A stretch of 47,985 nt of DNA from Patescibacteria group bacterium UBA6241 (GCA_002441425.1 DJWB01000005.1:86705-134689), one strand, 5' to 3'. Shown: positions 6,274 through 40,577, numbered from the stretch's first letter. Made by a program: numbers and translations. Notes: a model not told the origin generated them from the letters alone.

Positions 6274-6358
6274 GCCCAGGTGGTGAAATTGGTATACACG
6301 CATCCTTGAGGTGGATGTGCCGCAAGGCGTGGAGGTTCAAGTCCTCTCCTGGGCACCA
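6274..6358 (+). tRNA. tRNA-Leu(GAG), CCA encoded
   Basis: GCCCAGG acceptor pairs with CCTGGGC, anticodon stem-loop is CATCC-TTGAGGT-GGATG, long variable arm, T-arm is GGAGG-TTCAAGT-CCTCT. Confidence 0.85.
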
Positions 6359-6557: not shown

Positions 6558-7196
6558 ATGGCAAAATCAGCCAGGACCCAATCCAAGTCCATCACCAACA
6601 GCCAGATCGCTCAGATCAACGATCGCCTGGCCACCCAGCTCCGCAACTCCGGCCTCCCGGCTGAGGGTGTGCAGAGCGTCCTCGCAACTCCGGGCGGCGT
6701 GGCCATCGACGAGATGGTCGCGGTGCTTCGCAAACGCGTGGAAGCCAACAGTGACCTCGTCGTCCGCATCGTGTCCGTGAACCGGGCGCGCAGCGGCAAT
6801 GAGGCGCTCAAGGCCACCAGCCGCACCCTCTACGTCGCCAAGGACGTCGTGGACGCGATGCCGAACGGCGAAGGCGATCAGGTTGAGCTCGTGTTCTTCA
6901 AGCCCAAGCCGGAGGAATACACTCGGCCTGGCCTCATGAGCGACGATGATCTGGACAAGGCGCTGGCACTTCGCAACCTCGGTGCCGCCGACCCGTTCTC
7001 GGTCGCCGCACACAACGAGGCCGATTCCGCCTTCGCCGACGAACGCCCGAACGCGACGCACTGGAAGGACAAGGACGACCGCTGGTGCTATGCCGCGTTC
7101 GACCGGTGGAACGGCGAGCGCCTCGTGGGCGTCTACCGCTGCGACGGCGGCTGGGGCGACGGCTGGTGGTTCGTGGGCGTGCGCAAGAGCGCTTAG
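6558..7196 (+). CDS. DGR variable (target) protein, 212 aa, C-terminal VR. Putative C-type-lectin-fold ligand-binding domain
   Basis: GAAGGA SD 7 nt before the ATG, with an in-frame stop at 6540 upstream. High-GC codon usage. The C-terminus ...FDRWNGERLVGVYRCDGGWGDGWWFVGVRKSA is templated by TR. Confidence 0.85.
   Translation: MAKSARTQSKSITNSQIAQINDRLATQLRNSGLPAEGVQSVLATPGGVAIDEMVAVLRKRVEANSDLVVRIVSVNRARSGNEALKATSRTLYVAKDVVDAMPNGEGDQVELVFFKPKPEEYTRPGLMSDDDLDKALALRNLGAADPFSVAAHNEADSAFADERPNATHWKDKDDRWCYAAFDRWNGERLVGVYRCDGGWGDGWWFVGVRKSA
7093..7186 (+). repeat. DGR variable region (VR)
   Basis: Aligns to 7533-7626 at a constant 440-nt offset. 16 mismatches, all where TR has A. All non-A positions are identical. 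Confidence 0.9.
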
Positions 7197-7201
7197 CGCT
7201 C
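7187..7201 (+). promoter_or_regulatory. GC hairpin immediately 3' of VR (candidate DGR target-recognition hairpin)
   Basis: GAGCGC-tta-GCGCTC straddles the TAG stop. It is present only after VR, not after TR. Confidence 0.45.
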
Positions 7202-7251
7202 GGGCATCTCGGAACTCCTTAGTCCCTTTGGGCTACACGCCCTTTCTTGGA

Positions 7252-7292
7252 GGCCATCGCTTGCTCTGCTCGCGGTGGCCTTCCTTTATTTT
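7252..7292 (+). terminator. intrinsic terminator of the target gene
   Basis: GGCCATCGC-11 nt-GCGGTGGCC stem (one G-T pair) followed by TTCCTTTATTTT. Confidence 0.6.
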
Positions 7293-7532
7293 GGTACACT
7301 ACATTCGGCACTAGGCGAATATGTGGGTGAGCACGTCTCTCCCGCTGCCGAAGCCAGTATCCGTACGCTCAGAATAGGGAAGGACATGCGCCTTCGCTAG
7401 CGTGGCGTACGCAGAAACTTCATACAATGAAGATACTTGGTGCGAGGCGCTGAGGCATTGCGATGCCGGATTAGATTCAACCCGAAGAACCTTCTACGGG
7501 CGGTGGTACAGATGGCGCCTCGTACAATTCGT

Positions 7533-7626
7533 CCGCGTTCAACCGGTGGAACGACGAGCGCAACGTGAACGTCAACCGCAACGACAACGACTGGAACGAC
7601 AACTGGTGGTTCGTGGGCGTGCGCAA
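7533..7626 (+). repeat. DGR template repeat (TR), non-coding
   Basis: 25 adenines including 9 AAC codons in the VR reading frame. Differs from VR only at 16 of those adenines. The 3' block CTGGTGGTTCGTGGGCGTGCGCAA is identical in both copies. Confidence 0.9.
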
Positions 7627-7636
7627 CTATCCTTCA

Positions 7637-7984
7637 TTATGAACGCCCGCCCCGCTGCGGGTGTTCGTTTTTCCGTACGATCTGTCCGTACCATCCCGTG
7701 AGCTGCTTGCCTGCATCCTCGAGCGGAACGGAGAGCGCCGCATACTTGTTCGTCTCAAGTGATCCAGTCTCCCATAGCACCATAAGCAGTATCTTTAGAG
7801 TATCTAGCTTGCGTATTGCAAGCCGTATCCAAGGCTCCTTCTCTGCAGATCCAAGGAAGGTTGCAGATGCAATTGCTTCTATGCATTCAATAAGTAGCCC
7901 ATCTACGCGGAGTCCGAGTGTGTATCGGTGGGTTTTGGGAAGCTTTTGATAGTATTGGTACCAAAGTAAATATGCTGCCTTCAA
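7637..7984 (-). CDS. avd: Avd-like accessory variability determinant (four-helix-bundle protein). The 5' end appears displaced by a frameshift at a C9 tract
   Basis: LPKTHRYTLGLRVD...AIRKLDTLKILLMVLWETGSLETNKYAALS...GKQLTGW resembles, from my recollection, the CPR four-helix-bundle/Avd family. The called start is a TTG with no SD. An ATG at 8027 joins this frame if the tract is one nt shorter. Confidence 0.7.
   Translation of the reverse strand: MKAAYLLWYQYYQKLPKTHRYTLGLRVDGLLIECIEAIASATFLGSAEKEPWIRLAIRKLDTLKILLMVLWETGSLETNKYAALSVPLEDAGKQLTGWYGQIVRKNEHPQRGGRS
7641..7672 (+). terminator. terminator-like hairpin 15 nt after TR
   Basis: GAACGCCCGC-cccgct-GCGGGTGTTC followed by GTTTTTCC. It lies inside the 3' end of avd on the opposite strand. 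Confidence 0.5.
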
Positions 7985-8009
7985 ACGTTCAAGAACAGGT
8001 AGAAGTTTC

Positions 8010-8018
8010 GGGGGGGGG
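8010..8018. repeat. G9/C9 homopolymer tract inside the avd 5' region
   Basis: Nine consecutive G on the + strand, counted directly. Confidence 0.9.
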
Positions 8019-8065
8019 TTGAACCATATGATGTCTGTGCGCTTAAGTACGAGGATATCATCTCA

Positions 8066-9049
8066 ATGGACAATCTCCTTGCTGCGTGGCGTGAGTTTTT
8101 AAAAGGAAAGCGAAAGAAGCGTGATGTGCAAGAGTTTGAGCGCAACCTGATGTCTAATATCGTATCGCTCCACACAGATCTTGTAAGAAAGGCTTATGTA
8201 CACGGTGGCTACCGTGAGTTTAGAATAAATGATCCGAAAGCGCGTGACATACACAAGGCGAGTGTGCGTGACCGACTTTTGCATCATGCTGTGTATCGCA
8301 TTCTCTACCCGGTATTTGATCGGAGTTTTATAGCAGACTCTTTCTCTTGCAGGGAAGGAAAGGGAACCCACAAAGCAATAAAACGCTTCGGGTCTTTTGC
8401 GTTCAAGATCTCAAAGAATCATACTCGCACTCTTTGGATCTTGAAGTGTGATATACGAAAGTTCTTCGCGTCTATAGACCATCAACGATTAACGAACATT
8501 CTTGAAGAACGGATTCCCAACCAAAATATACTGTGGCTCCTATCTGTCATTATAAAAAGTTTTCAGATTAATGGACAGGCAAAAGGGCTTCCACTCGGGA
8601 ATCTAACGAGCCAACTTCTCGTAAATATTTACATGAATGAGTTTGATCAATTCGTAAAGCATCAGCTCAAGGTGAAGGCGTATATTCGTTATGCAGACGA
8701 CTTTGTCCTTTTCTCTTCAGACAAAAGAGAGTTAGAAAAGATGCTGGTGTACATAGAAACATTCCTTAGAGACAATCTAAGTCTTACTCTTCATCCCAAG
8801 AAAGTTTCCATACGAACCCTCGCTTCGGGTGTTGATTTCCTAGGGTGGGTACATTTCCCTGATCATCGTGTCTTGCGCACTACAAGCAGGCGGCGCATGT
8901 TTCGCCGTCTCAAGAAGACCGCATACAGAAGAGATAGTGTAGGCTCTTATATAGGCCTTTTAGGGTACGGCAATAGCCAGAAGCTCAAGAAGGAAATAAA
9001 TATAGCGAGCGAACAAATGAGCAAGAGAAATGGCCTGGGCACCCGATGA
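8066..9049 (+). CDS. DGR reverse transcriptase
   Basis: YADDFVLF catalytic box, GLPLGNLTSQLLVNIYMNEFD (the DGR-specific LGxxxSQ motif), SFSCREGKGTHKA. 327 aa with no maturase or endonuclease tail. GAGGA lies 10 nt upstream of the ATG. Confidence 0.9.
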   Translation: MDNLLAAWREFLKGKRKKRDVQEFERNLMSNIVSLHTDLVRKAYVHGGYREFRINDPKARDIHKASVRDRLLHHAVYRILYPVFDRSFIADSFSCREGKGTHKAIKRFGSFAFKISKNHTRTLWILKCDIRKFFASIDHQRLTNILEERIPNQNILWLLSVIIKSFQINGQAKGLPLGNLTSQLLVNIYMNEFDQFVKHQLKVKAYIRYADDFVLFSSDKRELEKMLVYIETFLRDNLSLTLHPKKVSIRTLASGVDFLGWVHFPDHRVLRTTSRRRMFRRLKKTAYRRDSVGSYIGLLGYGNSQKLKKEINIASEQMSKRNGLGTR

Positions 9050-9111: not shown

Positions 9112-9184
9112 GGCGGCTATGGTGTAACGGTTAACACTACAGATTGTGGTTCTGTCAATTCGGGTTCGATTCCCGGTAGCCGCC
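9112..9184 (+). tRNA. tRNA-His(GTG) with encoded G-1
   Basis: G-GCGGCTA acceptor pairs with TAGCCGC-C, anticodon stem-loop is ACAGA-TTGTGGT-TCTGT, T-arm is TCGGG-TTCGATT-CCCGG. Confidence 0.8.
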
Positions 9185-9194
9185 CCCAGAATAT

Positions 9195-38414: not shown

Positions 38415-40577
38415 TTAAGTATCTTCCTCGTCGTCAGTATCAGTGCCTCCTGAAGCGCCACTAATAACTTCTCGGGGGCGTGAGCCGTCTGCGGGGCCTA
38501 TAACACCTTTCTCCTCAAGGATATCCATGAGACGTGCGGCACGTGAGTAGCCAATACGAAGCTTTCTCTGCAGGTAGGAAGTAGAGGCGCGCCCAGCTTC
38601 TTCAACAGCTTCTCGTGCGGCACCGTAGAGATCATCATCAGCGTCTTCATCATCTCCAGCGAGCATGATTGCATCGTTAGTTTCATGGACTCCTGTTCCG
38701 TTTGTGCCAGCCCCAAGATCAATTGAAGAGAGGGAACCGGAGTTGTGTTGCTTGATGTACGCGACCACCTTCTTAACCTCCTGCTCGCTAATGTAGGCAG
38801 TCTGGAGACGTACAGGCTTCTGCATGTCTGCAGACTGGTACAACATGTCTCCTGCACCAAGAAGAAGCTCAGCGCCCCCTGAATCAAGGATCGTGCGTGA
38901 ATCAATCTGGCTAGATACTTGAAGTGCCATGCGCGTAGGCACGTTCGCCTTAATAAGGCCCGTGATCACGTTTACGGAAGGGCGCTGTGTAGAGAGGATG
39001 AGGTGGATACCAACTGCACGAGACATTTGAGCGAGACGGACAATAGCGCTCTCAAGCTCTCTCGGGTATGTCTGCATGATGTCAGCAAGCTCATCAATCA
39101 CGATAACGATGTAGGGCATCGCCTCAGGCATCTCCTTGGCCTTTCGTTTCTTTGCAGGCTCTACGATGGTGTTGTGATAGGACTCAATATCGCGCACCTG
39201 AACCTCTTCAAGAATATTGTAGCGGCGGTCCATTTCCTTTGCTGCCCACTTAAGCGCAAAGATACATTTCTTAGGATCTGTGATAACTGGAGTGAGCAAG
39301 TGGGGGATACCGTTATATAGAGTGAGCTCTACACGCTTTGGATCAACCATGATGAAGCGCATCTGGTTAGGGCCGTTACGATAGAGAAGGGAGGTAATAA
39401 CTGCATGTATAGCTACAGACTTTCCAGAACCAGTTGCTCCGGCAATGAGTCCGTGCGGCATCTTTGCAGTATTTACGTAGTGAGGAGTTCCGGTGATATC
39501 ACGACCCACTGCAGCGAGTAGAGGCTTCTTGCTCGCGTTCCACTCAGGAGCACCAATAACTCCACCCAAGCCTACGGTTGCCTTTGAAGCATTAGGAACT
39601 TCAATTCCAACTAGAGATTTCCCTGGAATAGGAGCCTCTATGCGAACAGGGTGCGCCGCGAGTGCGAGTTCCAAGTTGTTCTGAAGACCTACGATCTTAT
39701 TAAGACGAACACCTTCAGCAGGCTTTATGGCGTAGCGAGTAACGGTTGGTCCTACAGATATTTCGTCCATCTCTACGGAGATACCGAAGTTCTGGAATGT
39801 TCGCTTAATAATATTTGCGTTTGCCTTAATGTCGCCGACTCCTGGCTTGCCTTTGTCTTCCCCCAGAAGAGAGAGTGGGGGAGCCTGGTACTCAGCATCA
39901 ATATTAGGGATAGGCTCACTGCTTGGGGCAGTGTTCTCTCTGTTGAACATAGTTATGACAGGCTCAGCTTCAGGAGCAGGTGCCTCTTCCTCTTCTTCCT
40001 CGTCCTCTGTCTCTTCTGCATCTTCCTCCTCGTCTTCCTCTTCTTCATCACGTTCTTTGCGTGCGGGAAGGGAAGGAAGCTTTATAGAAGAAGCCAGAGT
40101 CCCTGTCTTTTCAAAGAACCCAGCAAGCGCTTTTGAAAGCACTACGATATCAATGGCGATGACAACACCGATAGCAGCTACAGCAATTAGGAGAACTAGT
40201 GCAGCTGGACCGAAGAACTCAGAGGCGGCTGCTCCAAGTGCTGCACCCGCTGCACCTCCGAGTGCCTGCGTGGTGATCCCAAGAAGGGTGAGTATTGAAA
40301 GAAGGATTAGGAGGATACCTATAGCAGTGAGGGGTGATACAAATGTTCTCTCAAGCATGACTGCGAGGCCTACACCAACTAGGAGGAGCGGCAAGAGAAG
40401 TGAGGCGACACCAAATACTCCAAAGCCGAAGGTGAAGAGTGCGGTACCAGCAAGCCCTGCAAGCCCAAAAGCAGCAAGTCCGAAGATTCCCCCAAACGCT
40501 ATAAGCACGATGCCCGTCGTCCATTTGGCGAGGGCTCTGTAGTTGTCTTGGTTGCGGCGCTTTTTGCGCTTTTTCAT
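38415..40577 (-). CDS. ftsK: DNA translocase FtsK/SpoIIIE
   Basis: N-terminal TM helices, acidic poly-E/D linker, GATGSGKSV Walker A, VIVIDELADI Walker B, C-terminal gamma wHTH (YLQRKLRIGYSRAARLMD). Confidence 0.95.
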   Translation of the reverse strand: MKKRKKRRNQDNYRALAKWTTGIVLIAFGGIFGLAAFGLAGLAGTALFTFGFGVFGVASLLLPLLLVGVGLAVMLERTFVSPLTAIGILLILLSILTLLGITTQALGGAAGAALGAAASEFFGPAALVLLIAVAAIGVVIAIDIVVLSKALAGFFEKTGTLASSIKLPSLPARKERDEEEEDEEEDAEETEDEEEEEEAPAPEAEPVITMFNRENTAPSSEPIPNIDAEYQAPPLSLLGEDKGKPGVGDIKANANIIKRTFQNFGISVEMDEISVGPTVTRYAIKPAEGVRLNKIVGLQNNLELALAAHPVRIEAPIPGKSLVGIEVPNASKATVGLGGVIGAPEWNASKKPLLAAVGRDITGTPHYVNTAKMPHGLIAGATGSGKSVAIHAVITSLLYRNGPNQMRFIMVDPKRVELTLYNGIPHLLTPVITDPKKCIFALKWAAKEMDRRYNILEEVQVRDIESYHNTIVEPAKKRKAKEMPEAMPYIVIVIDELADIMQTYPRELESAIVRLAQMSRAVGIHLILSTQRPSVNVITGLIKANVPTRMALQVSSQIDSRTILDSGGAELLLGAGDMLYQSADMQKPVRLQTAYISEQEVKKVVAYIKQHNSGSLSSIDLGAGTNGTGVHETNDAIMLAGDDEDADDDLYGAAREAVEEAGRASTSYLQRKLRIGYSRAARLMDILEEKGVIGPADGSRPREVISGASGGTDTDDEEDT

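Follow-up and report, generated by a model that had tools for sequence, protein, structure and literature searches.

A poly-C tract at the 5′ end of avd as a candidate phase-variation switch of a diversity-generating retroelement in Patescibacteria

We analysed a stretch of 47,985 nucleotides from Patescibacteria group bacterium UBA6241 (GCA_002441425.1 DJWB01000005.1:86705-134689; hereafter, the window), which contains a diversity-generating retroelement (DGR) whose accessory gene, avd, is split from its start codons by a homopolymeric tract of nine C (C9). Our results make it probable that this tract is a simple sequence repeat (SSR) that works as a phase-variation switch on avd, with slippage at the DNA level toggling the frame of the start codons and thereby gating DGR hypermutation. 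We also favour, with rather less assurance, a broader proposal: that a repeat at the 5′ end of avd randomly switches Avd, and hence diversification, throughout the Patescibacteria clade whose DGRs are arranged as template repeat (TR), avd and reverse transcriptase (RT), or TR-(avd)-RT. In the mechanism that we propose, slipped-strand mispairing during replication would add or remove C residues, and the length of the tract would set which ATG, if any, shares the frame of the Avd body. Avd is essential, binds the RT and is needed for DGR cDNA synthesis (PMC5758913), so the tract would gate hypermutation of the target gene. Such gating would be stochastic, a bet-hedging switch placed atop a diversity generator, and subpopulations might first vary a binding protein and afterwards fix one variant.

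The tract and the avd features around it are the following:

8010–8018, minus strand: poly-C tract C9 (G9 on the plus strand), the proposed hypermutable switch, as read in the sequence
8025–8027, minus strand: proximal ATG of avd, 6 nt before the C9 tract, with the body in frame at C8 and C11
8059–8061, minus strand: distal ATG of avd (MISSY...), with the body in frame at C7, C10 and C13
7637–8009, minus strand: Avd body frame (K LLPVLERLK...), with its stop at 7639-7637, intact and with zero internal stops
7982–7984, minus strand: TTG, the first canonical start of the body frame at C9, a mechanical call

On the minus strand, the ATG at 8027-8025 is followed by GTT CAA and then by the C9 tract, and its frame gives MVQPPPETSTCS, of 12 codons, which ends at a TGA at 7991-7989. 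Translation thus bears out the original prediction, made from the sequence alone, that this ATG reads MVQPPP through the nine C at 8018-8010 and runs into an early stop. The same prediction had described the body frame as open upstream of the TTG at 7984, and this TTG as lacking a Shine-Dalgarno (SD) motif; the frame is indeed open back to a TGA at 8065-8063 (...IWFNPPPKLLPVLERLKAAYLLW), with the TTG as its first ATG, GTG or TTG codon, and no AGGAG-like SD motif was found before it. Likewise, a tract shortened in silico to C8 joins the ATG at 8027 to the body in a 129-aa protein (MVQPPPKLLPVLERLK...), which matches the ca. 129 aa that had been foreseen. A further start codon had been overlooked: the ATG at 8061-8059, which has an AAGGAG motif 13 nt upstream and is translated as MISSYLSAQTSYGSTPP into the tract, yielding at C9 a 26-aa peptide that ends at 7981-7983. 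No SD motif was found upstream of the ATG at 8027.

Changes in repeat number toggle the frame of an otherwise intact avd, both in an in-silico series from C6 to C13 and in natural cases found in protein clusters 3, 6 and 7. At C7, C10 and C13, the ATG at 8061 opens an Avd of 140–142 aa and the ATG at 8027 a short peptide, while at C8 and C11 the ATG at 8027 opens an Avd of 129–130 aa and the ATG at 8061 a short peptide; both classes are ON states. At C6, C9 and C12, both ATGs give short peptides, which is the OFF state. The assembled C9 belongs to this OFF class, and a change of one C would take it to either of two ON states. The presence of two alternative start codons makes a multi-state switch possible, in which the length could also affect the overlapping promoter of the divergent RT gene. 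Out-of-frame lengths would abolish Avd.

The C9 tract is the sole homopolymer of at least 8 in the 47,985 nt, where the longest other G/C run is of 6. A dinucleotide-shuffle test for C8 on the window alone was nevertheless unremarkable (2 overlapping hits vs. a mean of 0.52, with at least 2 in 12 of 100 shuffles), and the significance of the tract derives from the related loci and not from the window alone.

Relatives were retrieved by DNA-level searches that were independent of gene calls. These yielded 160 usable related TR-(avd)-RT loci, 80 of them from species-representative Patescibacteria genomes and at least 80 from metagenomes, the latter taken from the matches listed, among which the window allele does not appear. 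The genome set bears the labels Kaiser-, Uhr-, Nomura-, Azam-, Wolfe-, Yanofsky-, Buchanan-, Vogel- and Adlerbacteria, Paceibacteria and others. Essentially all the related loci that include upstream DNA have a divergent RT gene, and the tract lies 37–78 nt from the RT start in nearly all of them. The original prediction had raised the question of whether such loci also carry a homopolymer at this site, and a run of C7 to C13 occurs at the exact homologous position, immediately 5′ of LLPVLE, in 140 of the 160 loci (C9 in 53 and C10 in 54). Over the 561 kb of related loci, 130 G/C runs of at least 8 are at the avd site and 0 are elsewhere.

Loci without poly-C often hold a different repeat at the site homologous to 8010-8018: (CAAC)n with 2, 3, 3, 7 or 12 units, (GCCA)10, (ACGA)9, (GA)6 or (GA)21 (non-poly-C repeats in L150, L032, L128, L072, L146, L054, L080 and L073). 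For instance, the (CAAC)3 of L054 is out of frame, and the (CAAC)2 of L034, with one unit fewer, is in frame. Ten of the 12 loci with no repeat, or a vestigial one, are in frame with an ATG, which ties the disruption of the frame to the repeat. Given that the repeats found at this site share only their instability and a non-triplet unit, they speak for selection of the switch itself and against the alternatives of a required PPP peptide, an RNA or DNA element of specific sequence, and an error of sequencing. A PPP peptide can also be discarded as the reason for the tract because poly-C encodes proline in every frame, L017 and L110 encode PPP by mixed codons, and the repeats of other lineages encode unrelated peptides. 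Stabilised alleles, with PPP encoded as CCG CCA CCG, are rare. An interrupted tract occurs in L123 (...TCACCA CCCCCCCC), whose near relatives L035, L042 and L164 have TCA C9, and L123 may be a partly stabilised allele.

Downstream of the tract, codons 8–16 show a coding signature with protein-level purifying selection (143 distinct loci). Among these loci P10 is invariant and uses all four proline codons, with a third-position entropy of 1.86 bits; CCC appears in just 16 of the 143 (11%), so an all-CCC tract is not ordinary codon usage. Considering the 130 runs against 0, the low proportion of CCC at P10 and the variety of repeats, the repeat appears to be maintained by selection and not by chance or codon usage; the switch would then have been selected as a regulator.

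Tract length varies between near-identical sequences of the relatives. In one locus of Uhrbacteria, the flanks are identical over 405 nt and the tract is C9, C10, C11, C12 or C13 depending on the sample, with C11 on three contigs (JGI, NCBI and Logan) and C13 in two JGI samples. The two overlapping ATGs of this locus (ATGCATGG) lead to MHGQQST... at C10 and C13 and to MDNSL... at C11, and neither C9 nor C12 has an ATG in frame. Three other pairs of loci, with 0–1 mismatch in 500 nt, differ by one C. Likewise, 90%-identity protein clusters contain identical bodies with differing leaders, which are the same DNA in different frames (...NGTPPP on 32 contigs vs. MVPPPP on 11, and MIFSY...DESNPP vs. 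MNPTPP). Within a lineage, switching would be both fast and reversible, and the window's own tract presumably varies as those of its relatives do.

In every tract-bearing locus, one or more ATGs within the short spacer between avd and RT read into the tract, and the frames of these ATGs are distributed nearly at random. The body shares its frame with an ATG in 51 of the 140 tract loci (36%; random-frame expectation, 60) and in 25 of 69 species-representative genomes (random expectation, 28.0; P=0.26). Among the out-of-frame loci of these 69 genomes, 22 need one C fewer, 18 need one C more and 4 could be restored by either change. A proportion of 36% in frame, with no fixed direction of shift, differs from what a programmed ribosomal frameshift would entail, namely a conserved out-of-frame arrangement of fixed direction, which the 69 species genomes do not show. 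The relative L084 is ON through the distal ATG, and the protein cluster closest to the window comprises one ON member, P0122, which starts at the MISSY ATG, and six truncated calls, two of which, P0123 and P0126, are the window allele itself.

The protein obtained by repairing the frame in the window is matched with significant E-values, though below the curated cut-offs, by Pfam bAvd (PF22296; 32.6 bits, curated cut-off 40) and by NCBIfam DivGenRetAVD (NF033474; 48 bits, cut-off 80), in the latter case over profile positions 1–103 of 104, and its homologs have the precomputed Pfam annotation PF22296. A sequence-profile search of the PDB gave no match. The AlphaFold model of P0002, a homolog that is 84% identical, is a four-helix bundle with a pLDDT of 88, and with this model Foldseek retrieved the Bordetella Avd structures 4DWL and 8UB7 with TM-scores, normalised to target length, of 0.82–0.90. 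Helix 1 of the model begins at the Pro of LPVLE, and the prolines of the tract are in a low-confidence N-terminal tail that precedes it. A start at TTG 7984 would lose 5 residues of this helix, in agreement with the truncation that had been predicted.

All the named sources of the 333 Avd homologs that we found are Patescibacteria. Their N-termini follow the pattern Mxx-PP(P)-x-LLPVLERLK, in which P4, L9, P10 and V11 are conserved in at least 90% and L12 is invariant, and the first position of the NCBIfam Avd profile corresponds to L9 of LPVLERL. Homologs begin with MxxPPPKLLPVLE, and MISSY or MIxSY starts are found in P0006, P0008, P0020, P0022, P0024, P0036 and P0122. This comparison of N-termini, which the original prediction had pointed to, thus finds the PP(P)xLLPVLERLK segment present and no conserved start at the codon equivalent to 7984, which in the 143 loci is TTG in 29, TTA in 16, GTC in 13, ATC in 12, GTA in 12 and other codons in the rest. 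We therefore ruled out TTG 7984 as the real start, because the residues upstream are conserved as protein and most loci have, at the equivalent position, a codon that cannot serve as a start; together, these two features indicate that translation begins upstream and passes through the tract. A non-canonical start (ATC or ATA) in the body frame 5′ of the tract is not a general solution either, since a stop is found directly before the tract in, e.g., L009 and L013.

The DGRs of these relatives diversify in nature. In two pairs of loci, L009/L100 and L037/L134, sequence differences over the 1,500 nt downstream of the tract are confined to the variable repeat (VR), and the TR is identical between samples. 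The differences in the VR, ca. 870–1030 nt downstream of the tract, are at TR-adenine sites in 16 of 17 cases for L009/L100 and in 15 of 15 for L037/L134. This near restriction to TR adenines indicates that the DGRs of the clade are active in natural populations. The length of the avd tract also differs between samples in both pairs, and in one of them L134 (C10) is ON and L037 (C9) is OFF.

Several observations weigh against a switch at this site. The consensus states are mostly OFF (64%) and, in L009/L100, both lengths (C9 and C10) are OFF, yet the VR diversified between those samples. This would mean that ON cells form a minority or exist only transiently, or else that the OFF state leaks through RNA-level or ribosomal slippage. 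Assembly may also under-represent populations whose DGR is active, given that contigs break at a hypervariable VR. As to the window allele, it is C9 in all three of its assemblies (ENA ERZ27315056, Logan SRR943318 and JGI 3300001592), which are 100% identical over up to 1,700 nt including the VR, and no length variant was seen among them. These assemblies may come from one population or sample and cannot count as independent evidence, and their identical VR is compatible with an inactive (OFF) DGR.

The alternative that best withstands these data, although we consider it unlikely, is that decoding does not depend on the frame. Slippage of RNA polymerase, or of the ribosome with tRNA-Pro, would make Avd at any length, and the tract would set its level; slippage of +1 or −1 would occur on CCC-CCC-CCC, where polyproline causes stalling, and the DNA frame, being nearly neutral, would drift freely. 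Slippage of +1 at CCC-C sites is established, as is the role of EF-P and m1G37, and an all-C run allows tRNA-Pro to re-pair in any frame. This would fit the statistically random frame states across species as well as the L009/L100 pair, with a VR that still diversifies when both lengths are OFF. Nevertheless, the lineages with (CAAC)n, (GCCA)n, (ACGA)n and (GA)n cannot use homopolymer slippage, and these di- and tetranucleotide repeats also argue against programmed transcriptional slippage as a shared mechanism. Besides, neutrality leaves unexplained both the retention of the tract at a single site and the rarity of CCG CCA CCG alleles, variation in length is directly observed at the DNA level, and the lack of a conserved shift direction speaks against a classical programmed frameshift. 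Slippage at the RNA level or on the ribosome could plausibly coexist with DNA switching, as an added leak on poly-C.

We regard as quite improbable that the length of the tract in the window is an error, with a true C8 or C10 and an intact avd. Homopolymers are certainly the classic site of indel errors, and the three concordant assemblies, identical even in the VR, may stem from the same reads. But three assemblers or pipelines agree on C9, the window contains no other gene-breaking homopolymer, and 64% of the related loci, from many studies, are out of frame, with lengths that recur in independent assemblies (C11 three times and C13 twice). Neither was a full-length copy of the window avd allele found among 5.8 billion protein clusters. 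In all, of the options that the original prediction had left side by side, the comparative tests support phase variation and, in the absence of a fixed direction, speak against a programmed frameshift, leaving an error in length as unlikely.

More doubtful still is that the repeat serves the divergent RT gene, or the DGR RNA, as a cis element (a promoter spacer or part of a 5′ untranslated region), with an incidental or secondary effect on the frame of avd. SSRs in promoter spacers are a known kind of phase variation, and the position of the tract would be suitable: G9 is 48–56 nt upstream of the RT ATG, with the tract of the relatives at 37–78 nt, and the avd-RT intergenic space is so tiny (4 nt between ATGs) that promoters must overlap coding sequence. 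The repeat, on the contrary, varies in sequence and length (C7–C13, (GA)21 at 42 nt and (CAAC)12 at 48 nt), which is incompatible with a sequence-specific element or with a fixed −35/−10 spacer, and it is always inside the avd reading frame, just after the start codons. A fixed RT promoter spacer in particular is unlikely, since the repeats span 7 to 48 nt and no sigma-70-like promoter was found to cross the tract. The repeat could have a dual effect, acting also on RT transcription.

Least probable of all is that avd is a frameshifted pseudogene of a dying DGR, because, in spite of the broken frame, the lack of an avd call on the source contig and a VR that is identical in three assemblies, the Avd body, RT, TR, VR and target are intact and the VR differs from the TR only at adenines, the break falls exactly at the conserved repeat, where one C more or fewer restores a homolog-like protein, and the same break occurs in ca. 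2/3 of the species, including ones with demonstrably active DGRs.

A phase-variable avd has its closest parallel in contingency loci, in which SSRs mediate translational phase variation (poly-G/C in Campylobacter jejuni and Neisseria, and tetranucleotides in Haemophilus influenzae). They share a non-triplet repeat directly behind the start codon, in a stretch where the protein can bear changes in length, frame toggling by one unit more or fewer and, here in the relatives, length polymorphism among otherwise identical sequences. The C9 tract is, indeed, a non-triplet repeat of hypermutable length at the 5′ end of a reading frame, 6 nt after the ATG at 8027. On/off switching driven by SSRs is described in PMC3546556 and PMC2651432, and PMC4965091 gives poly-G/C of at least 7 as the typical class of contingency-locus repeat. 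Unlike in those loci, avd encodes neither a restriction-modification enzyme nor a surface structure but an accessory of targeted hypermutation, its hosts are not host-adapted pathogens but uncultivated Patescibacteria of the environment, and the site is kept across a very deep radiation in which repeat types interchange. Also, in the window allele two starts in two frames would, as judged from the sequence, make two of every three length classes ON.

Phasevarions, as presented in PMC5909438, are likewise comparable in having a random SSR switch on a gene with many downstream outcomes, a second-order effect, although here the effect would be on the diversification rate at the DGR target and not on methylation-dependent expression. 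Compared with the DGR (mtd-avd-TR-brt) carried by BPP-1, a phage of Bordetella, the window shares the RT, Avd and the adenine mismatches between TR and VR, and the model of the Avd homolog superposes on 4DWL with a TM-score, normalised to target length, of 0.9; it differs in having avd on the opposite strand, in the architecture designated B3, and in an identity of ca. 18% to the BPP-1 Avd, for whose gene no such switch has been described. Homopolymers at which frameshifting is programmed or transcription slips are known from dnaX, insertion sequence (IS) elements and the poly(A) rescue of endosymbionts. These systems also have a homopolymer of at least 9 between two frames of one gene, but they differ from avd, with its 36% in frame, its about equal +1 and −1 classes and the di- or tetranucleotide repeats used by other lineages.

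DGRs are among the most abundant natural systems of targeted mutagenesis and are especially common in bacteria of the Candidate Phyla Radiation (CPR). The control of their activity in the wild has been called "an exciting frontier" in a 2026 study (PMC12875486). Full-text searches, which did not cover Paul et al. 2017, found no literature connecting DGRs or avd with homopolymers, SSRs, frameshifts or phase variation, and the large DGR survey of Wu et al. (PMC5758913) likewise contained no SSR switch on avd. Phase variation by SSRs is a familiar phenomenon, and so are DGRs; to judge from those searches, their combination in a conserved switch on avd would be new. If true, DGR activity would have its first natural regulator of such a kind to be described, and the CPR its first widespread contingency locus; the switch would extend phase variation, mainly known from host-adapted pathogens, to uncultivated, ultra-small environmental bacteria, and be a case of evolvability that controls evolvability. 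The ON/OFF state of a DGR could then be scored from metagenomic reads and related to VR diversity across samples or time series. Moreover, gene callers truncate or miss avd in ca. 2/3 of the loci, so DGR surveys that require avd undercount it or misplace its start.

The remaining features of the DGR cassette in the window are these:

6558–7196, plus strand: DGR target gene, 212 aa, with the VR at the C-terminus
7093–7186, plus strand: variable repeat (VR), at the 3′ end of the target gene
7187–7201, plus strand: GC-rich inverted repeat GAGCGCTTAGCGCTC, directly 3′ of the VR and spanning the target stop codon
7533–7626, plus strand: template repeat (TR), 94 nt
7639–7668, plus strand: terminator-like hairpin with a 12-bp stem plus a T-run, directly 3′ of the TR and overlapping the avd stop codon
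8066–9049, plus strand: DGR reverse transcriptase, divergent from avd (RVT_1, 5.4e-28; motifs LGNLTSQ and YADD)

The cassette is recognisable as a DGR by the adenine mismatches between TR and VR, by an RT that adjoins the TR and by a VR at the 3′ end of the target that is followed by the GC-rich inverted repeat. The RT motif LGNLTSQ conforms to [LIV]GxxxSQ, which we take to be typical of DGRs. TR and VR differ at 16 positions, all 16 of them at TR adenines (16 of the 25 in the TR), and the VR ends 10 nt before the target stop codon; with the RT, the TR/VR pair and the Avd body in this condition, the DGR of the window is otherwise intact. The product of the target gene has no match in Pfam or NCBIfam. 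By analogy, the GAGCGCTTAGCGCTC inverted repeat may correspond to the hairpin downstream of the VR in known DGRs (Wu et al. 2018, PMC5758913). With avd between TR and RT and on the opposite strand, the cassette has the TR-(avd)-RT, or "B3", architecture of 90% of CPR DGRs (Wu et al. 2018, PMC5758913). The ATGs of RT (8066) and avd (8061) are divergent and 4 nt apart. The hairpin at 7639-7668 could end a separate TR RNA or be a bidirectional terminator between convergent TR and avd transcripts.

Beside the ATGs, almost all of the 160 loci conserve the motif ATGATATCCTCGTA (8059-8068 in the window), which is antisense to GAGGA, the ribosome-binding site of RT; the 'MISSY' N-terminus may owe part of its conservation to this. 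The window RT is also present on two further contigs. In L001, the source contig (ENA ERZ27315056 k141_820366), the gene caller placed an antisense open reading frame of 164 aa (6567-7061, minus strand) instead of the target and called no avd, so annotation-based DGR surveys would miss both genes.

The DGR cassette (target, TR, avd and RT; 6558-9049) is flanked by tRNA-Leu(gag), at 6274-6358, and tRNA-His(gtg), at 9112-9188, a placement between tRNA genes that suggests an island-like insertion. Elsewhere in the window, an imperfect CT-rich tandem repeat at 39981-40049 has periods of 6–27 nt, all multiples of three, and its opposite strand probably codes for an acidic or low-complexity stretch.

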